Assembly: GCA_903857255.1 (NCBI GenBank)
Contig: CAIODY010000034.1
Location: 8,127-72,126, forward strand
DNA: 64,000 nucleotides
Direction: 5' to 3'
Source: an uncultured bacterium
GTDB taxonomy: Bacteria; Bacteroidota; Bacteroidia; Chitinophagales; CAIODY01
The notes below the pieces were generated by a model. The model searched no databases. It had not been told where the DNA came from and was given only the letters and a program-made list of their open reading frames with translations. Every line of letters begins with the position of its first letter. Position 1 is the first letter of the stretch. A program made the translations under genes and the position numbers. Below are positions 53,622 through 63,312 of this stretch, piece by piece.

Positions 53622-54113
53622 TTACTTGCTATCAGGAGTGATATAAGATTTGTTACCGTTTTTGTTAATGTAATATTTTCCACCACGAGGACCAGTGTGA
53701 ACTGATTCACCATTTGGACCATGCAATTTAGGGTCAACTGCATCAGTTGTTTTTACAGCCGATTCAGCTTTATCTTTCTTTTCAGAAACTTCTTTTTTAG
53801 TTGTTGCGCCTTTTGCTTCAGCTTTTGCTTTGCCTTCTTTTTTCATCGAAGCCCCTGTTACTTCGGCTTTTTCTTTTTTCTCAGCAACTTCTTTTTTGGC
53901 TGTTGCACCTTTTGTTTCAGCCTTTGCTTTGCCTTCTTTTTTTATTGCTGTGCCTTTTGCTTCAGCTTTTTCTTTTTTCACTTTACCTTCTTTTTTTACC
54001 TCTTTTTTCGCTTCTGTTTTTGCTTTTGTATCAGCTTGAGCAGCAAATGATTGTTGACCGAAAAGTAATACCACAACTATTGCAGCACTTACCAAGAATT
54101 TTACTTGTTTCAT
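53622..54113 (-). CDS. Secreted Lys/Ala/Glu-rich tandem-repeat protein with a C-terminal GPRGG-YY motif
   Basis: Signal peptide MKQVKFLVSAAIVVVLLFGQQSFAAQA (start moved to ATG 54111-54113). Repeats KKEGKAKAE(T/A)KGAT(A/T)KKEV(A/S)EKK(E/D)KAE. Tail HTGPRGGKYYINKNGNKSYI. Confidence 0.6.
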   Translation of the reverse strand: MKQVKFLVSAAIVVVLLFGQQSFAAQADTKAKTEAKKEVKKEGKVKKEKAEAKGTAIKKEGKAKAETKGATAKKEVAEKKEKAEVTGASMKKEGKAKAEAKGATTKKEVSEKKDKAESAVKTTDAVDPKLHGPNGESVHTGPRGGKYYINKNGNKSYITPDSK

Positions 54114-54186
54114 TTTAATTTGTTTGTTTGTTTGGGTATGATTTAGCGAATATCGTGCCAATAATTTTATTAAAGAAGAAATAAAG

Positions 54187-56783: not shown

Positions 56784-57758
56784 ATGCAAATCATCCGTCG
56801 CCCACGTATTCTTCGTCAATCGCCAGCTATCAGAGCCATGGTGAGTGAAACCATTTTATCGCCCAACGATTTTATTGTTCCACTTTTTATCAACGAAGGA
56901 AAAAATTATAAAGAAGAAATTTCTTCGATGCCTGGTTATTACCGCATGAGTTTAGACAACATCGAAAAAGAAGTGAAAGAGTTGTGGCGTATGGGTTTGA
57001 AGTGTGTTTTATTATTCATCAAATGCGATGATAAATTAAAAGATAACAAAGGCACTGAAGCATTGAACCCTGATGGATTAATGCAACGCAGCATTAAAGC
57101 CATCAAAAATGTTTGCCCTGAAATGTGTGTGATGACTGATGTTGCACTCGACCCTTTTTCCATTTATGGGCATGATGGCATAGTTGAAAATAATGAAATT
57201 GTAAATGACCCAACTGTAGAAGTATTGGCACAAATGAGTGTATCGCATGCCGCTGCTGGTGCTGATTTCGTAGCACCAAGCGATATGATGGATGGAAGAA
57301 TTTTAGCCATTCGTGAGGCATTGGAAGAAAATAATTTTACCAAAACAGGCATCATGGCTTACAGCGCAAAATATGCTTCTTGTTTTTATGGTCCTTTCCG
57401 TGATGCGTTAGATTCTGCACCTGGTTTCGGTGATAAAAAGTCTTACCAAATGAATCCTGCTAACCGAATTGAAGCAGTGAAAGAAGTGATGATGGATATT
57501 GACGAAGGAGCTGATATTGTCATGGTGAAGCCGGCTTTGAGCTACTTAGATATTATCAGAGAAGTGAAAAATATTTCTGATGTGCCTGTGAGTGCTTATC
57601 ATGTAAGTGGTGAATATAGCATGATTAAAGCCGCCGCCGCCCGTGGTTGGCTGAATGAAGACCAAACCATTTTAGAAACAACACTCTCAATCAAACGTGC
57701 AGGCGCTGATTTAATCGCCAGTTATTTTGCAAAAGATGTGGTGAGATTGTTGGGGTAA
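56784..57758 (+). CDS. hemB: Porphobilinogen synthase
   Basis: RRPRILRQSPAIRAMV; active-site region VMVKPAL. Confidence 0.95.
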   Translation: MQIIRRPRILRQSPAIRAMVSETILSPNDFIVPLFINEGKNYKEEISSMPGYYRMSLDNIEKEVKELWRMGLKCVLLFIKCDDKLKDNKGTEALNPDGLMQRSIKAIKNVCPEMCVMTDVALDPFSIYGHDGIVENNEIVNDPTVEVLAQMSVSHAAAGADFVAPSDMMDGRILAIREALEENNFTKTGIMAYSAKYASCFYGPFRDALDSAPGFGDKKSYQMNPANRIEAVKEVMMDIDEGADIVMVKPALSYLDIIREVKNISDVPVSAYHVSGEYSMIKAAAARGWLNEDQTILETTLSIKRAGADLIASYFAKDVVRLLG

Positions 57759-57774
57759 TTGAACTTTCTATTAT

Positions 57775-58449
57775 TTAAGAAACATACTCAAATTTGTAAC
57801 CAACCCCTTTAATCGTTTTAATCACTTCATCTCCTAATTTGCTTCTTATCTTTCTGATGTGAACATCAATAGTTCTATCCCCAACATACACATCATCGCC
57901 CCAAACACGGCTCAATATCTCATTTCTATAAAAAACTCTACCAGGTTTTGAAGCTAATAAACTTAAAAGTTCAAATTCTTTTCTTGCCAAATCAACGGGT
58001 TTATCTTTTTGGAAAACCACATATTGTTCTTTATCAATCACAATATCACCATAAGCCATTTTAGAAGTATTGCCACTGTCGGCACTTCTTCTTAATAAAG
58101 CATTCACACGACTAATCAGCAATCGGGGTTTGATAGGTTTAGCAATATATTCATCAGCACCCACCTCAAAGCCTTTCAGTTCACTTTGTTCATCATCTAA
58201 AGCAGTTAAGAAAGCAATCAAGCAAGTTTTTAATTCAGGTAGCTTTCTGATTTGCTCACAAGCTTCAATACCTGTTTTTTCAGGCATCATAATATCTAAC
58301 AGAATTAAATTAGGTTTGTGTTTCTTCGCCAATTCAATAGCTTCGTTGCCATTTTTACCTGTAATCACCTCATATCCTTCTTTTGAAAGATTATAAGCGA
58401 TGAAATCTAAAATATCAATCTCATCATCTACTACTAAAATTTTAGCCAT
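57775..58449 (-). CDS. OmpR/PhoB-family response regulator (orphan: no kinase adjacent)
   Basis: Receiver domain (ILVVDDE, LILLDIMMP) plus winged-helix domain (VHIRKIRSKL, GVGYKF). Confidence 0.9.
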   Translation of the reverse strand: MAKILVVDDEIDILDFIAYNLSKEGYEVITGKNGNEAIELAKKHKPNLILLDIMMPEKTGIEACEQIRKLPELKTCLIAFLTALDDEQSELKGFEVGADEYIAKPIKPRLLISRVNALLRRSADSGNTSKMAYGDIVIDKEQYVVFQKDKPVDLARKEFELLSLLASKPGRVFYRNEILSRVWGDDVYVGDRTIDVHIRKIRSKLGDEVIKTIKGVGYKFEYVS

Positions 58450-58731: not shown

Positions 58732-59628
58732 ATGAAGAAAAACGCTTTACTTTTTTTCGCTGCTTTGGCAGTAGGTTATGTTACTTTAACTGCTTATCAT
58801 GCTGGCGCAGGCAATAGTGGCTGGGATTGCACTGGTGCTGAAACAGGCTTGAGCAACCCAACTGGTTGCAAGGGTAGCGGTTGTCATGCATCAAGCACTA
58901 CCGCTAACATTGGTGTTACTTTAGAATTAGATTCGGCTGGTGTTGCCACTACTCGTTATGTAGCAGGTATGAATTACACCGTAAAAATTACTGGCACAAA
59001 CAATGGAAGTACTTCATTGCCAAAATTTGGTTTTCAAATTGGTTGTATTACAGGTTCTACTGCACAAGCTACACCAACTAATGCAGGTACATGGGCAACT
59101 ACAGGCTTACCTGCTTCTACACGTTATACAGGGGCTTCAGCTAATAATTTTGTAGTCAATGTGGTGGAGCAAAGTGCAGCTATTGCAGCCACTTCGGGTA
59201 GTGGTGGTAGCGGAACTACTTATACCAACTCATTTACTTGGACTGCGCCTGTTGCAGGCACAGGCACTATCTCTTTTTGGGGGGTGTTAAATGCAGTGAA
59301 TGGCAATGGCAATCAAGATTCGGGTGATTTGTGGAATACTACTTCCTTAGTAATTTCTGAAAAAACTGCATCAGGAATTAATGAGGTGAATGCTTTAAAT
59401 TTAAACATCTATCCTAACCCTACGCATCAAACTTTAATGGTAAATTGTGCAACACCAGTGCAAACTATGGAAGTGTTTGACATGATGGGTCGCCATGTGA
59501 ATGTGGCTTATACTGCCAATGAAAATCATTATGCATTAAATGTTAGCGAATTAAATGCAGGTATTTATTTCGTTAAAGCATTAGATAGTAAAGGTGCTAT
59601 TGCCTTAGAAAAGTTTATTAAAGAGTAA
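58732..59628 (+). CDS. T9SS-exported protein, paralog 1: N-terminal C-X4-CH motif, reeler/DOMON-like beta-sandwich pattern, type-A sorting CTD
   Basis: Signal peptide MKKNALLFFAALAV. GCKGSGCH (58867-58887). FGFQIG and FTWTAPVAGTGTISFWGV pattern. C-terminal IYPNP...LNAGIYFVK... (T9SS CTD). Confidence 0.7.
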   Translation: MKKNALLFFAALAVGYVTLTAYHAGAGNSGWDCTGAETGLSNPTGCKGSGCHASSTTANIGVTLELDSAGVATTRYVAGMNYTVKITGTNNGSTSLPKFGFQIGCITGSTAQATPTNAGTWATTGLPASTRYTGASANNFVVNVVEQSAAIAATSGSGGSGTTYTNSFTWTAPVAGTGTISFWGVLNAVNGNGNQDSGDLWNTTSLVISEKTASGINEVNALNLNIYPNPTHQTLMVNCATPVQTMEVFDMMGRHVNVAYTANENHYALNVSELNAGIYFVKALDSKGAIALEKFIKE

Positions 59629-59658
59629 TTGTAAATAGGTTTTGTTGTTTTTAGAAAT

Positions 59659-59694
59659 GAAACTCACTTTTGAAATATAGAGTGAGTTTTTTTT
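59659..59694 (+). terminator. Rho-independent terminator
   Basis: gaaactcact (59659-59668) pairs with agtgagtttt (59681-59690). A T-run follows. Confidence 0.7.
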
Positions 59695-59796
59695 GCCTTA
59701 TAAATGAAGGATGCAAAAAAAACATTACAGGCATTAAACCTTGCTTTTAATTTGTAGTCTTCTTAAGGCAAATGTTTAAACAACGACTAAAATAAA

Positions 59797-60207
59797 ATGG
59801 ACAGAAAACAATTTTTAAAATCAACTCTTTTATTAGGTGGATTAGGCTTAGCAGGTTCGGCTTTATTAATTGAAAGCTGTAAAAAATCAAGTAATACTGC
59901 TGCTGTTAATTTCACTTTAGATTTATCGCAATCAGTCAATTCAGCATTAAATTCAGTTGGGGGTTCTGTTGCATCCAATAATGTAGTAGTGATTTGCACT
60001 GCCACAAATACTTGGGTAGCCTTATCGCAATTGTGTACGCATCAAGGTTGTTCGTTAAGTTATTCCAAATCGGCTAAGCAATTAATTTGCCCATGTCATG
60101 GCGGCACTTTTGATACAAGTGGAAATGTAGTTTCGGGCCCACCGCCTTCTGCCTTAACTAAATATACAGTTACTAAAAGCGGAACAGTATTAACTATTAC
60201 AGGCTAA
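59797..60207 (+). CDS. Small exported Rieske [2Fe-2S] lipoprotein
   Basis: Rieske ligand motifs CTHQGC and CPCHG. N-terminus DRKQFLKSTLLLGGLGLAGSALLIESC (Tat-like or lipoprotein signal). Confidence 0.85.
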   Translation: MDRKQFLKSTLLLGGLGLAGSALLIESCKKSSNTAAVNFTLDLSQSVNSALNSVGGSVASNNVVVICTATNTWVALSQLCTHQGCSLSYSKSAKQLICPCHGGTFDTSGNVVSGPPPSALTKYTVTKSGTVLTITG

Positions 60208-60356
60208 AATTTAATCGACAAATATTTTGTTGTTTCAACATTTCTTGTTTTTTTTGTACTTACTGAAACGAGTGATTTTTGTCACTTTTAAAATTGATTA
60301 CTACATCTATTTTTGCAAAAATTATCATTTACTAAAAACAACATCAAAACATCAAA

Positions 60357-61166
60357 ATGAAGAAAATTACACTCTTAACTACTGTAGCTATAATTGCTGC
60401 TTTGTTTATCAATGTAAACAACAATCGTGTTAACTCAAGAAGCAGCGGCGCACCTGCTGGTAATGCAGGCAATCCATCAGCAGGCAATTCTAATTGTTAC
60501 ACTAGTTGCCACAATGAAACAGTTGCCAATCTTTCATCAACACAAGGTGGTGTAACACTTTCACTTCGTGGTGTAGCTGCAACAACTGGCTATTATCCTG
60601 ATTCTACTTATACGGTTACGTCATCAATTTCTGTATCAGCAAGTGGGCACGGGTTTCAAACTACAGCCGAATCTTCTTCAGGTTTTGCTGGAACATTCAC
60701 AGCAGGTTCGGGCAATAAAGTTACAGGCACTAATTATGTAACACATACTTCTCCAATTAGCTCAACACCAGCATCATGGTCTTACACTTGGAAAGCACCA
60801 AGCGCAGGTAAAGGAACGGTTACATTTTATTCAGCCTTTATGACTTACAATGTTCATACATATTTATCTACTTCTGCTTTTACTGAATTAACACCAGTGA
60901 ATACAACAGGCATTAAAAATTTGGATGAATTTGCATTCTCAATTTATCCTAATCCAACAGTTCATAAATTCAATATTTCAGTACCTGAATTGAATAGCTC
61001 ATCAACCATTGAAATTTATGACATCGCAGGAAAATTAGTTCAGCATTTAAACTTTGAAGCAGCTAACAATATCGAAGCAAACATTAGCAATTTGAATGCA
61101 GGAATTTATTTTGTGAAATTAACAGCAGGTAACAAAACAGGCATTTCTAAATTAATAAAACAATAA
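60357..61166 (+). CDS. T9SS-exported protein, paralog 2: SSGAP...C-X3-CH motif, reeler/DOMON-like pattern, type-A sorting CTD
   Basis: Signal peptide. SSGAPAGNAGNP...CYTSCH (60495-60512). GHGFQTTA and WSYTWKAPSAGKGTVTFYSAF. C-terminal IYPNP...LNAGIYFVKL. Confidence 0.7.
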   Translation: MKKITLLTTVAIIAALFINVNNNRVNSRSSGAPAGNAGNPSAGNSNCYTSCHNETVANLSSTQGGVTLSLRGVAATTGYYPDSTYTVTSSISVSASGHGFQTTAESSSGFAGTFTAGSGNKVTGTNYVTHTSPISSTPASWSYTWKAPSAGKGTVTFYSAFMTYNVHTYLSTSAFTELTPVNTTGIKNLDEFAFSIYPNPTVHKFNISVPELNSSSTIEIYDIAGKLVQHLNFEAANNIEANISNLNAGIYFVKLTAGNKTGISKLIKQ

Positions 61167-61178
61167 CTAAATCTTATA

Positions 61179-61213
61179 ACAGCAGTTGCATAACTTGCAT
61201 CTGCTGTTTTTTT
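61179..61213 (+). terminator. Rho-independent terminator
   Basis: aacagcag (61179-61186) pairs with ctgctgtt (61201-61208). A T-run follows. Confidence 0.65.
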
Positions 61214-61229
61214 AAAACACCCAATCAAC

Positions 61230-61619
61230 ATGAAGAAAAACTTACTCTTTGTTATGGTAATAGTTGTTGCAGCCTTATTAATGAATAATGCTTGCAAAAA
61301 AGATAAAGCACAAGCAATTGTTGCAACTGCTAATGTACCAGATACTTGCTCTGCAATTACTTTTACTAAAACGATTATGCCCATCATTACAACCAGTTGT
61401 GCAACAGGCTCTAAATGCCATGGTGCTGGCTCATCGCATAATGTGTATTCTAATTACGCAAGCATTAGCAGTGAAGTAACTAATGGTTTTTTAACTGTAA
61501 GTAGCAATCAAATATTGGGTAAAGGCATTGATATGACTGGTCCGTTAAATGGCAATTTAACGCAATCGCAAATCAATCAATTTATTTGTTGGCTAAATAG
61601 TGGCGCACCAAATAATTAG
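61230..61619 (+). CDS. Small lipoprotein with a cytochrome-c-like (PSCyt/haem-binding-domain-like) pattern but non-canonical C-X5-CH
   Basis: Lipobox LLMNNAC. FTKTIMPIITTSCATGSKCHG (Cys...Cys-His at 61398-61421). C-terminal QFICWLNSGAPNN. Confidence 0.55.
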   Translation: MKKNLLFVMVIVVAALLMNNACKKDKAQAIVATANVPDTCSAITFTKTIMPIITTSCATGSKCHGAGSSHNVYSNYASISSEVTNGFLTVSSNQILGKGIDMTGPLNGNLTQSQINQFICWLNSGAPNN

Positions 61620-61669: not shown

Positions 61670-62227
61670 ATGAAAAATTATTTTTTAGTTCTCGTTAGTT
61701 TTTTGTTTGCTTTTTCAACTGTAAAAGCACAAGACATTTACATTGCACCAACTGCCTCTATCGGTTTTTTCTCTGCCACATCTATGGAAAATATTGATGC
61801 AAAAACAAAAGAAGCTTCGGCAGCTATTAATGTGAAAACCAAAAAGATTTTCTTCAAAGTAAAAAACACTTCCTTCATTTTTAAAAGTAGTTTGATGCAA
61901 GAGCATTTTAACGAAAACTATATGGAAAGTGAAAAATTTCCATTCACTCAATTCAATGGTGAAATTGTAGATGCACCTAATCAAGATTTCACAAAAGATG
62001 GTGCTTACGAAGTAACTGTAAAAGGCAAAATGACTTTGCATGGCGTTGAAAAAGAATACACTACCAAAGGTTCTATTGTGGTGAAAGATGGTAAAATAAG
62101 AGCGCAAGCTAAATTCAATATCAAAATGGAAGACCACAAAATAAAAATACCAAGTGTGGTTGGTGCAAATATTGCTGAACAAGTGGAAGTTAATGTTGAT
62201 GCCACTTTTGAGCCACAAAAAAAATAA
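61670..62227 (+). CDS. YceI-family (polyisoprenoid/lipid-binding) periplasmic protein
   Basis: Signal peptide. EHFNENYMESEKFPFTQFNG and GKMTLHGVEKEYT match the YceI-like pattern. Confidence 0.75.
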   Translation: MKNYFLVLVSFLFAFSTVKAQDIYIAPTASIGFFSATSMENIDAKTKEASAAINVKTKKIFFKVKNTSFIFKSSLMQEHFNENYMESEKFPFTQFNGEIVDAPNQDFTKDGAYEVTVKGKMTLHGVEKEYTTKGSIVVKDGKIRAQAKFNIKMEDHKIKIPSVVGANIAEQVEVNVDATFEPQKK

Positions 62228-62239
62228 TCAATTCGTTTT

Positions 62240-62276
62240 AAACCCTGCAAGATTTTATTTTGCAGGGTTTCTTTTT
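62240..62276 (+). terminator. Rho-independent terminator
   Basis: aaaccctgcaa (62240-62250) pairs with ttgcagggttt (62260-62270). cttttt follows. Confidence 0.75.
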
Positions 62277-62308: not shown

Positions 62309-63256
62309 ATGAAATTTTTGTACCTCTTTTTATTGGCTGCATTGGCAACCACTTCATTAAAAGCACAAGATGATTTAAGCAATTTATTTAAAGACGATAA
62401 AAAATCACACGACCCTGTTACAGCCACTTTTAAAACTACGAGATTAAACATGGGACATTCCATCGAAGTAGTAGGTAAACATCAATTAGATGTTAGAATT
62501 TCACACGTTTTTGGTGAAGTGCATAATACATCAAGCACGGCTGATTTACATTCCTTATATGGTTTAGAAAGTATTTCAAATGTGCGTATTGCTTTTGAAT
62601 ATGGTGTTACAGATAAATTAACAGCAGGCTTTGGTCGCAGCAAGGGTTTTGGTGCAGCTAAAGAATTATACGATGGCTTTTTAAAATACAAATTATTGCG
62701 CCAAACCATTGACAACAAAATGCCTGTAACTGTAACATTGGTGGGCACTGCACAAGTGAGTGGAATGATTGCATCTACCGACCCTACCAGTGAAACCAGC
62801 TATGGTAATTTTTCTCAACGTTGGAGTTATTCAACACAAGCATTAATCGCTCGTAAATTCAGCGAAAAATTATCATTGCAAATAATGCCAACTTGGATTC
62901 ATCGCAATTATGTGGTGGCAGCAAATACTTTAACAAATTTACCTGCTGATGAAAATGATATGTTTGCCATTGGTGTTGGCGGCAGATATAAATTTAGTAA
63001 ACGTAGTGCCATCATTATTGATTGGTTTATGCCTTTTAGCAATTACCGAACACAAGAACACAAACAAGGATTGTATTACAATCCACTTGGAATAGGCTAT
63101 GAGATTGAAACTGGCGGACATGTGTTTCATTTAAGCTTAGTAAACACAGGTGGATTTTCCGAACAAGATTTTATTTCCAACAGCCCAACATCATGGACTA
63201 AATGGGGATTCCGTTTAGGATTTAATATCAGCCGTTGGTTTACTATCGGGCACTAA
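62309..63256 (+). CDS. Outer-membrane beta-barrel protein (DUF5777-like)
   Basis: Signal peptide. TFKTTRLNMGHSIEVVGKHQLDVRISHVFG resembles the DUF5777 N-terminal pattern as I recall it. Alternating beta-strand pattern. Confidence 0.6.
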   Translation: MKFLYLFLLAALATTSLKAQDDLSNLFKDDKKSHDPVTATFKTTRLNMGHSIEVVGKHQLDVRISHVFGEVHNTSSTADLHSLYGLESISNVRIAFEYGVTDKLTAGFGRSKGFGAAKELYDGFLKYKLLRQTIDNKMPVTVTLVGTAQVSGMIASTDPTSETSYGNFSQRWSYSTQALIARKFSEKLSLQIMPTWIHRNYVVAANTLTNLPADENDMFAIGVGGRYKFSKRSAIIIDWFMPFSNYRTQEHKQGLYYNPLGIGYEIETGGHVFHLSLVNTGGFSEQDFISNSPTSWTKWGFRLGFNISRWFTIGH

Positions 63257-63283
63257 TTTTTGTTTCAAAAAAAATAATTTTAA

Positions 63284-63312
63284 AAGGCAATCATTTATGA
63301 TTGCCTTTTTTA
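63284..63312. terminator. Bidirectional rho-independent terminator
   Basis: aaggcaatca (63284-63293) pairs with tgattgcctt (63298-63307). It is flanked by an A-run and a T-run, between convergent genes. Confidence 0.75.

Follow-up and report, generated by a model that had tools for sequence, protein, structure and literature searches.

Desulfovibrio cytochrome c3 carries the motifs CGTAGCH and CKKSKCH, and in Wolinella the motifs CX15CH and CXXCK depend on dedicated CcsA isoforms. Haem-c motifs of the forms CX3CH and CX4CH are both accepted (PMC10734462; bioRxiv 10.1101/2024.01.05.574438), and for CX4CH there is structural proof in hydrazine dehydrogenase, at haem 3 (PMC6469936); CX5CH is absent from the haem-c motifs described in the literature. 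In the proven CX3CH and CX4CH sites, two thioether cysteines with three or four residues between them are followed by a histidine, an arrangement that the motifs reported here resemble. However, the proven variants are single haems of multihaem enzymes, whereas each of ours is a lone candidate site, with spacings from n = 1 to n = 9 across the families concerned.

For the reeler fold, Kletzin et al. (2015) predicted that Igni_0759 is a monohaem cytochrome c (PMC4429474). The protein was modelled on the F-spondin reeler, the cleft fitted a haem c on Cys28, Cys31, and His32, and the conserved His111 was proposed as a candidate distal ligand (PMC4429474). Together with Igni_1052, Hbut_1376, and Pyrfu_1333 it forms the Desulfurococcales "cluster 38" (PMC4429474), whose members have a canonical CXXCH and a C-terminal transmembrane helix and are predicted cytochromes. 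According to Table S2 of the same study, CxxCH is retained in the bacterial homologues, "sometimes with different spacing" (PMC4429474), so that spacing variants of this reeler family are already on record and are not new. The human F-spondin reeler (2ZOT/2ZOU/3COO) contains neither a C-Xn-CH segment nor haem, and the bacterial domain covered by NF041895 and PF02014 has no recorded function in databases.

Three motif-bearing proteins in one gene cluster

The window, that is, the whole stretch of 64,000 nucleotides that was analysed, had been reported in a sequence-only reading to encode three secreted proteins with Cys-Xn-Cys-His motifs of spacing 4, 3, and 5 and without CXXCH. Translation confirmed this for the proteins named A, C, and D here (Table 1), whose boundaries were backed by gene calls on identical public contigs. 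The motif of A had been given with a leading glycine, GCKGSGCH; the interval holds CKGSGCH, and the glycine belongs to the codon preceding 58867. As had been claimed, the second cysteine and the histidine are residues 51 and 52 in both paralogues, A and C. The window has 126 open reading frames of 80 aa or more, and in all of them together C-X(2-5)-CH occurred only these three times, whereas composition predicted about 0.2 for the whole window. Considering that all three lie in one gene cluster, their clustering is not a chance effect.

Table 1. Features of the gene cluster (window coordinates).
Feature	Position	Strand	Description
OmpR/PhoB-type response regulator	57775..58449	-	Response_reg and Trans_reg_C; divergently transcribed
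Protein A, 298 aa	58732..59628	+	Signal peptide, N-terminal reeler-fold/choice-of-anchor-V-like domain, T9SS type-A sorting domain
CKGSGCH motif of A	58867..58887	+	C46-X4-C51-H52; family column invariant
Rieske [2Fe-2S] lipoprotein, 136 aa	59797..60207	+	RK Tat-like signal, lipobox; PF00355 E 2.1e-15
Protein C, 269 aa	60357..61166	+	Signal peptide, reeler-fold domain, T9SS type-A sorting domain
CYTSCH motif of C	60495..60512	+	C47-X3-C51-H52
His130 of C	60744..60746	+	Candidate distal ligand, in "VTHTS"; aligns with His111 of Igni_0759
Protein D, 129 aa	61230..61619	+	Lipoprotein, divergent monohaem cytochrome-c-like domain
CATGSKCH motif of D	61398..61421	+	C57-X5-C63-H64
Met102 of D	61533..61535	+	Candidate distal haem ligand; within two residues of the family Met column; aligns with "MP" of cytochrome c6
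YceI-like periplasmic protein, 185 aa	61670..62227	+	PF04264 E 6.7e-14
DUF5777 outer-membrane beta-barrel protein, 315 aa	62309..63256	+	PF19089 E 2e-82

All three proteins have an N-terminal signal sequence, consistent with export to the compartment in which haem is attached, and the T9SS sorting domains of A and C imply passage through the periplasm. The Rieske protein retained both boxes (CTHQGC and CPCHGG) and scored 56.9 bits against PF00355, for which the cut-off is 20.3. The response regulator gene adjoined the cluster on all public contigs that carry it, and its product is a possible candidate regulator.

We compared the cluster with 80 related genome loci. A D-family gene lay within 10 kb of a reeler gene in 15 of them, a YceI gene was present in 14, and a DUF5777 gene in 13, the latter mostly as part of the same module. 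A Rieske gene adjoined the reeler gene in no loci other than those of the closest relatives, L001 and L002. The L001 version of D shares CX5CH with that of the window, and L002 contains the same gene set with the order of the Rieske and reeler genes swapped and a D-like gene with a canonical CSGCH. In another locus (L023), genes for two multihaem cytochromes, cytochrome b561, ResB, and CcsA are present in addition. No haem synthase gene was found in the window or in 79 of the 80 related loci.

Two unrelated families behind the motifs

The sequence-only reading had treated the three motifs as one class. This was not upheld, as they belong to two unrelated families and folds, A and C on the one hand and D on the other. 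Homologue alignment, the check that had been proposed for the cysteines and the histidine, showed them to be invariant or nearly so for all three motifs, so that the loss of conservation named there as a refutation did not come about.

A and C are paralogues (31% identity, E 4e-19), each with a T9SS type-A sorting domain (PF18962/TIGR04183) above cut-off at the C-terminus (Por_Secre_tail E 1.6e-13 for A and 5.9e-18 for C). For protein C, which had 550 homologues, the AF2 model (pLDDT 90) matched the F-spondin reeler structures 2ZOT, 2ZOU, and 3COO in Foldseek with TM scores of 0.6-0.71, and superposed on 2ZOT at TM 0.71 with an rmsd of 3.0 Å and 20% identity. The reeler landmarks Y-x-PG-x-x-Y-x-V, GF, and W-x-AP-x-AGTG were also present in the profile-to-PDB alignment. 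For A and C, the earlier suggestion of a reeler domain was therefore correct as regards both fold and family. Curated models matched many of the 122 aligned family members, NF041895 in 118 and PF02014 in 54, and A and C themselves fell below the thresholds of both.

The C family could be aligned with Igni_0759 (hhalign probability 77.8%, E 1.9e-5; BLASTP E 4e-4), with C..CH and THT in register. The cysteines, the motif histidine and the candidate distal histidine thus all correspond in C, whereas A has an asparagine at the distal position and no other histidine in its domain. A and C share with their cluster 38 homologues the N-terminal "SNGAP...C-x-x-C-H", the reeler beta-sandwich, the "THT" histidine, and W-x-x-W-x-AP, but differ from them in having CX4CH and CX3CH instead of the canonical motif and a T9SS sorting domain. 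Cytochrome f is a beta-sandwich c-type cytochrome with a single CXXCH near the mature N-terminus and a Rieske partner. However, it has no detectable sequence relation to A and C, was not among the best 50 of 1,665 Foldseek matches, and is part of the membrane b6f complex, whereas A and C are secreted.

In the reeler-family alignment, which includes P0015, the orthologue of A, both motif cysteines (C47 and C51 in C) were present in all 122 members, and the next residue (H52 in C) was histidine in 118 and methionine in four. The spacing was n = 2 in 67 members, n = 3 in 15, and n = 4 in 40; across the family it spanned n = 1 to n = 5, the n = 1 (CXCH) proteins being from Poseidoniales archaea. 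Canonical CXXCH was the commonest state, found in 63 of 120 homologues and in 60 of the 94 domains in genome loci. The mature domain had exactly the two motif cysteines in 102/122 members. The column of His130 in C held histidine in 108 of the 122 (89%), glutamine in 11, and asparagine in three.

Protein D had 865 representative homologues (clusters at 50% identity) and no Pfam or NCBIfam match at E ≤ 0.1. In contrast to D, its CXXCH-bearing homologues pass Pfam cytochrome cut-offs, and multi-domain homologues match Cytochrome_CBB3 (PF13442), PSCyt1 (PF07635), and Cytochrom_C (PF00034). A D-like protein from locus L007, related to D with a phmmer E of 3e-11, passed PF13442 with 29.2 bits against a cut-off of 27. 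The D-family profile matched PccH (4RLR; E 0.003) with the haem site "VTYxKDIxPIxxxxC..CH" aligned and a two-residue insertion between the cysteines, and it aligned lengthwise with cytochrome c6 through the Met-Pro ligand and the C-terminal helix. The AF2 model of D (pLDDT 83) had no PDB match at E < 1 in Foldseek, a search in which apo models of small haem proteins often fail. This indirect sequence evidence places D in the cytochrome-c superfamily as a divergent relative of PccH, PSCyt1, and Cytochrome_CBB3. It differs from these and from cytochrome c6 in the five residues between the motif cysteines, where CXXCH would be canonical, an extra conserved cysteine pair (C40/C120), and a lipoprotein anchor.

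Among 88 single-domain homologues, C57, C63, and H64 of D were invariant and the lipobox Cys22 was conserved in 87. The distal column held methionine in 86, and in the other two, D among them, a methionine lay within two residues of it. In D, Met102 is followed by a C-terminal helix (residues 112-123 in the model), as expected for a distal methionine, which lies about 40-50 residues downstream. The methionine was conserved whatever the spacing, in all classes between n = 2 and n = 7 inclusive, and the retention of methionine together with both cysteines and the histidine at all spacings would be unexpected had haem been lost. Loop lengths in the whole family ranged from n = 2 to n = 9; among 231 motif instances, 55 had n = 2 and 121 had n = 4. 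CXXCH and longer loops were mixed within 40 of 49 multi-domain homologues, and judging from such sequences long and short loops appear interchangeable. The n = 4 loop has the consensus C-A-[TI]-S-G-C-H in the reeler family and in the D family alike. That two unrelated folds have it points to one and the same constraint from outside, which would be haem with its synthase, and the cytochrome c3 loop CGTAGCH resembles the form CATSGCH.

Haem attachment and its alternatives

In the reading that we favour, with a probability of about 0.55, the motifs of A, C, and D would be variant haem-c sites of an envelope electron-transfer module. The C-Xn-CH segment would attach haem c through an enlarged loop between two thioether cysteines, and the motif histidine would be the proximal iron ligand. 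D would be a small lipoprotein, a monohaem c-type cytochrome with His64 and Met102 as iron ligands and with terminal helices that the Cys40-Cys120 pair probably staples. A and C would be monohaem cytochromes too, but of the reeler fold (beta-sandwich). Covalent attachment of haem would take place in the periplasm and would be the work of CcsBA, the System II synthase of Bacteroidota, which would have to tolerate n = 3-5, and A and C would then be exported by the T9SS and retained at the cell surface. Along with the Rieske lipoprotein, the YceI protein, and the DUF5777 barrel, the three proteins would make up an envelope or surface electron-transfer module. Surface localisation of its proteins and the direction and purpose of electron flow are presumed here, and to name a metal or some other extracellular redox partner as the substrate is guesswork.

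The sequence-only reading had offered haem c or a disulfide that positions a histidine. Haem c is the better supported, because D is a diverged cytochrome-c superfamily member that keeps the distal methionine, because the archaeal homologues of A and C, with the same fold, have been predicted to be monohaem cytochromes c, and because in the reeler family CXXCH occurs more often than any other form and many related loci have it in their D-like neighbours. The redox genes in the cluster and in related loci, the Rieske gene among them, and the precedents for unusual spacing also speak for haem. The disulfide keeps a smaller, though appreciable, chance of being right. It would be a short intramolecular bond that stiffens the N-terminal segment without covalent haem, while the histidine, together with His130 (reeler proteins) or Met102 (protein D), would hold a metal ion or a non-covalent ligand, or would be purely structural. 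Paired cysteines in extracytoplasmic proteins form disulfides by default, a single bond is feasible where the reeler domain has exactly two cysteines, the F-spondin reeler is a non-haem protein, and no cytochrome was matched by D in Foldseek. A disulfide also easily accommodates loop lengths from 1 to 9, and the ranges seen in the reeler family (n = 1-5) and in the D family (n = 2-9) are tolerated more naturally by it than by a haem site; the span exceeds what any haem synthase is known to accept, and this counts against haem. However, a disulfide leaves unexplained why histidine follows the second cysteine in 118/122 and 88/88 proteins, why the cytochrome-type methionine persists in all D-family spacing classes, why canonical CXXCH predominates in the reeler family, and why the D family is homologous to true cytochromes c.

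It is improbable that haem is held only by the CXXCH members and that A, C, and D, with their expanded loops, are haem-less scaffolds for adhesion or binding. The window proteins are indeed divergent and, unlike their relatives, score too low for the Pfam and NCBIfam models, the candidate distal histidine is gone from A, and the methionine of D is two residues off the family column; the distal residue of A and the failure of curated models for all three also weigh against haem in general. The same holds for the absence of CX5CH from the described motifs, for the Foldseek result of D, for an archaeal precedent that is itself a model and, in view of the dedicated CcsA isoforms of Wolinella, for the lack of a synthase gene in the window and in 79 of the 80 loci. 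But there was no relaxation of the cysteines, histidine, or methionine in the n > 2 classes, long and short loops occur within single polypeptides and among D-like genes of the same module, and the Rieske partner is found precisely in the expanded-loop lineage. Slightly less probable still is a non-haem Cu, Zn, or Fe site formed by the Cys-Cys-His triad of surface metal-handling proteins. The exchange of histidine for methionine in four members (CxxCM) is typical of soft-metal ligand sets, and the cluster encodes other metal and redox proteins. Yet the axial ligands of haem show this exchange just as normally, metal sites with free thiols are not common among the exported or surface proteins that aerobes make, adjacent cysteine and histidine rarely ligate one ion together, and D is homologous to haem proteins. 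Functionless chance co-occurrence is favoured by the shortness of the motifs and by a search pattern that admitted several spacings, but the excess over the expected number in a single cluster and, above all, columns that are invariant across hundreds of homologues make it scarcely credible, and the conservation data led us to reject it.

A possible electron conduit and its meaning

A wider proposal, which we hold only tentatively and consider rather doubtful, is that the genes encode an unrecognised outer-envelope electron conduit of Bacteroidota and some other phyla. Its parts would be a CX2-9CH monohaem lipoprotein, T9SS-exported reeler-fold c-type cytochromes, YceI, and the DUF5777 barrel, with the Rieske protein joining them in this lineage. 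MtrCAB and Cyc2 are porin-cytochrome outer-membrane conduits that combine a beta-barrel with periplasmic or surface cytochromes, and eukaryotic FRRS1/SDR2 combines reeler, DOMON, and cytochrome b561 domains and ties the reeler to transmembrane electron transfer to metals. The likeness of the window module to these systems is functional only, and the module has no multihaem cytochromes. If such a conduit exists, Bacteroidota CcsBA would attach haem at cysteine spacings from 1 to at least 5 residues. The reeler domain, which in animals occurs in reelin, F-spondin, and the ferric reductase FRRS1, would then have its origin in a redox module that bound haem.

Should the motifs form disulfides instead, cytochrome scaffolds would have been re-used without haem, a result of narrower interest. 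If the sites do bind haem, CX5CH and the range n = 1-9 would extend the haem-c motif repertoire, and the System II synthase would be far more permissive than thought. Cytochrome counts in metagenomes, which rely on searches for CXXCH and at times CX3-4CH, would be too low, and at least 865 representative clusters (50% identity) missed by Pfam and NCBIfam would gain an annotation. The Ignicoccus reeler cytochromes of 2015 would gain a large and tractable bacterial branch exported by the T9SS. The module of DUF5777, YceI, cytochrome-like lipoprotein, and reeler protein would then be a candidate surface redox system of common aerobic freshwater and soil Bacteroidota.

Motif-bearing genes in the window

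Across the window ORFs of at least 80 aa, no C-X(2-5)-CH motif was found outside the three secreted proteins A, C, and D, the number predicted from composition being about 0.2. The motifs CYTSCH of gene C (60495-60512) and CATGSKCH of gene D (61398-61421) were as the sequence-only reading had described them. That of gene A was also recovered, as CKGSGCH at 58867-58887 (+); the leading G of the GCKGSGCH reported earlier belongs to the preceding codon. As had been claimed, the motif's second Cys is residue 51 and its His residue 52 in A as well as in C; the two proteins share 31% identity (E 4e-19), indicating that they are paralogues. All three genes lie on one strand within a six-gene cluster, whose gene boundaries were the same as the gene calls on identical public contigs. 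The G+C content of the window was 35%, and its closest genome match was the Chitinophagales MAG L001 (88% identity).

Genes of the six-gene cluster and their assigned products
Gene	Position	Strand	Product
A	58732-59628	+	reeler-fold T9SS cargo
Rieske	59797-60207	+	[2Fe-2S] lipoprotein
C	60357-61166	+	reeler-fold T9SS cargo
D	61230-61619	+	cytochrome-c-like lipoprotein
YceI	61670-62227	+	YceI-like protein
DUF5777	62309-63256	+	outer-membrane beta-barrel

The Rieske protein starts with a Tat-like signal carrying RK for RR (MDRKQFLK...), followed by the lipobox LIESC, which suggests that it may be exported by Tat and anchored to lipid. No cytochrome b partner for it was found in the cluster. Strong terminator-like hairpins follow A (59659-59690), the YceI gene (62240-62270), and the DUF5777 gene (63282-63309), so the cluster may comprise several transcription units rather than one operon; 11 such hairpins were found in the region against 3.5 expected. 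The sigma-70 promoter scan was uninformative, with 19 sites found and 19 expected.

Two neighbouring genes were considered as hints of haem supply and set aside. The hemB gene (porphobilinogen synthase; NF006762, E 1.8e-146) at 56784-57758 (+) is the second gene upstream of the cluster, with a response regulator in between, and its adjacency was taken as coincidence; the radical-SAM gene downstream was not HemN-like. Farther away, the ORF at 53622-54161 (-) encodes a signal peptide and then a highly repetitive Lys/Ala/Glu-rich stretch (KKEGKAKAEAKGATTKKEV...). Both other frames of the opposite strand are open across it too, with no obvious link to the motifs.

The reeler family of A and C

The motifs of A, C, and D fall into two families, not one. 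Pfam and NCBIfam scans identified a T9SS type-A sorting domain in A and C, and this tail was the only direct match, with none in the N-terminal domain. A profile search with the latter recovered 550 homologues. Among the 122 aligned family members, 118 matched NCBIfam NF041895 (choice-of-anchor V) and 54 matched Pfam Reeler. For the AlphaFold model of C (pLDDT 90), the top single-domain match among those listed was the human F-spondin reeler domain (TM at most 0.71, rmsd 3.0 Å, 20% identity), which the A/C sequence profile also ranked first, at a marginal E of 0.03. In the genome loci, the reeler domain occupied the mature N-terminus throughout, proteins as long as 1,600 residues included, and no fusion of reeler and D-type domains occurred among 270 proteins.

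The sequence-only reading had left the conservation of the motif to a homologue alignment. In this alignment both Cys (C47 and C51 of C) were invariant (122/122), and the residue after the second Cys (residue 52) was His in 118 members and Met in the other 4, so the His fell slightly short of invariance. Exactly two Cys were present in 102/122 mature reeler domains. A second His, His130 of C, a candidate distal ligand, was kept in 108/122 members and is Asn in A. With n as the number of residues between the two Cys, the 122 members including A and C comprised 67 with n=2 (63 CXXCH and 4 CXXCM), 15 with n=3, and 40 with n=4; the 120 database homologues alone gave 63 CXXCH, 14 n=3, 39 n=4, and 4 CXXCM. 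The genome loci added n=5 reeler proteins and n=1 (CXCH) in Poseidoniales archaea. The C-x-C-H form was seen as GCGCH, GCNCH, or GCSCH in the archaeal homologues L072, L078, L079, and L080 (Poseidoniales / 'Methanobacteriota' MAGs). The CXXCM members P0050, P0078, P0084, and P0093 carry CTHCM, CSQCM, CNHCM, and CSHCM, respectively; His directly precedes the second Cys in three of them, and all four retain His130. To our knowledge, CXXCM has not been described as a haem motif.

Four archaeal proteins with matches to Pfam Reeler, Igni_0759, Igni_1052, Hbut_1376, and Pyrfu_1333, have been predicted to be monohaem cytochromes c, with F-spondin as the modelling template (Kletzin et al. 2015, PMC4429474). 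The published model has a cleft fit for haem with Cys28, Cys31, and His32 on top, and His111 as a conserved candidate distal ligand. The same paper mentions that the Cys spacing of bacterial homologues sometimes differs. The A/C profile matched Igni_0759 in hhalign with a probability of 78% (E 1.9e-5), the C..CH and THT motifs being in register, and BLASTP gave an E of 4e-4. Homology to Igni_0759 is confirmed at the level of sequence.

The lipoprotein family of D

D is unrelated to A and C. Direct scans gave no Pfam or NCBIfam match, and a word-indexed homology search with D found D alone; like A and C, it is too divergent for the curated models. An exhaustive HMMER search yielded 865 representative homologues, each containing between one and four tandem domains (~100 residues apiece), or 15 in the case of one protein. 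Multi-domain homologues with CXXCH matched Cytochrome_CBB3, PSCyt1, and Cytochrom_C, and the D-like protein of locus L007, above the PF13442 cut-off, matched D at E 3e-11. Against the PDB, the family profile scored best with PccH (4RLR, E 0.003), a monohaem cytochrome, in an alignment that needs an insertion of two residues between the haem cysteines. It matched more weakly cytochrome c6 (E 0.023), aligned as far as the Met-Pro ligand, and hydrazine synthase in its haem domain (E 0.013). Foldseek found no significant counterpart of the D model in the PDB, its highest-ranking matches being RecA fragments (E>3).

In the corresponding alignment of 88 single-domain homologues, C57, C63, and H64 of the D motif proved invariant, as did W121, and C22 (lipobox), C40, P51, and the Met-Pro pair were at least 90% conserved. 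The candidate ligand Met (Met102 of D) was present in every spacing class, at the column in 86/88 and within two residues in 2/88, D included. The 231 motif instances comprised 121 with n=4, 55 with n=2, and 46 with n=5, the last count probably inflated by one repetitive protein; n=6 (5), n=3 (2), n=7 (1), and n=9 (1) were rarer. CXXCH and longer loops were mixed in 40 of the 49 multi-domain proteins. The n=4 loop consensus, C-A-[TI]-S-G-C-H, was identical in the reeler and D families. A 'CATSGCH' loop common to two unrelated folds suggests an external constraint, e.g., haem and its synthase.

D also has a second Cys pair. Cys40 (61347-61349; 85/88) precedes the N-terminal helix, and Cys120 (61587-61589; 74/88) lies in a C-terminal 'CW' motif. 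A disulfide between them probably clamps the terminal helices together; neither PccH nor cytochrome c6 shows such a pair. The D homologue P0178 (987 aa) has 15 matched stretches and an odd Pfam match to Spo7. It appears to repeat the N-terminal 'PI...C...CH' segment, with a leucine-rich loop, many times over, and could be either an unusual repeat protein or an artefact of low complexity.

Genomic context and reading of the motifs

Among 80 genome loci encoding reeler homologues, a D-family gene was located within 10 kb of the reeler gene in 15, usually directly adjacent; YceI was present in 14 and DUF5777 in 13. The Rieske gene occurred only in L001 and L002, the two closest relatives. L002 has the same gene set with the Rieske/reeler order swapped, and its D-like gene encodes CSGCH, whereas CX5CH is found in the window and L001. 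In Flavobacteriales-type loci, canonical CXXCH is found in reeler proteins and D-like lipoproteins alike. Between the YceI and D-like genes of these modules lies a small membrane protein (~130 aa, apparently four-helix; L007:9119-9511, L008, L012, L026, and L027, i.e., 5/80 loci), which neither Pfam nor NCBIfam recognised and which the cluster of the window lacks.

In the Bacteroidales locus L023, the module is embedded among two multihaem cytochromes, cytochrome b561, ResB, and CcsA, a much larger redox island. The segment L023:9863-19949 starts with the reeler protein (CTQCH), a Crp-like regulator, a multihaem cytochrome (five CXXCH and one CX4CH), the D-like CX4CH protein, and DUF5777, and continues with a monohaem cytochrome, a 7-haem cytochrome, cytochrome b561, ResB, CcsA, a second DUF5777, and YceI. 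No dedicated haem synthase was found near the genes in the window, and ResB and CcsA were found in L023 only among the related loci.

The most economical reading, to which we assign a probability of about 0.55, is that all three motifs would be haem-c attachment sites with enlarged inter-Cys loops; we are somewhat more confident about D and less so about A. D makes the strongest case through its homology to true cytochromes, the retention of Cys, Cys, His, and Met in every loop class, and the difference in loop length between D-like genes of the same module. The argument for A and C has four parts: the reeler family keeps Cys, Cys, and His (or Met) without exception, canonical CXXCH predominates in it, a second His is conserved (retained in C, replaced by Asn in A), and the genes have a redox neighbourhood. 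Accepted haem motifs include CX3CH and CX4CH (PMC10734462; bioRxiv 10.1101/2024.01.05.574438), and CX4CH is structurally proven in hydrazine dehydrogenase (PMC6469936). CX5CH is absent from the published list (bioRxiv 10.1101/2024.01.05.574438). In Bacteroidota the haem synthase is the System II enzyme CcsBA (PMC13645880).

The chief competitor to haem attachment is a disulfide loop plus His without covalent haem. A simple disulfide loop would tolerate the breadth of spacing from n=1 to 9, a range wider than any haem synthase is known to us to accept; weighed against the conserved ligands and the cytochrome homology, we regard this explanation as rather unlikely. Loss of haem in the long-loop members alone appears improbable next to a ligand set that does not change with loop length, and a non-haem metal site still more so.

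Apart from the archaeal paper, literature searches on bacterial reeler/CXXCH proteins, choice-of-anchor V, and DUF5777 turned up nothing on the family. Cytochromes c of non-canonical spacing, putative cytochromes of reeler fold, and the choice-of-anchor V domain are already known. CX5CH as a candidate haem site, free loop variation within monohaem domains, a large cytochrome-c-like lipoprotein family missed by Pfam, a T9SS-exported bacterial branch of the reeler family, and the conserved DUF5777-YceI-cytochrome-reeler module appear to be undescribed. This module, joined by the Rieske lipoprotein in the lineage of the window, resembles an electron-transfer chain of the envelope or cell surface.
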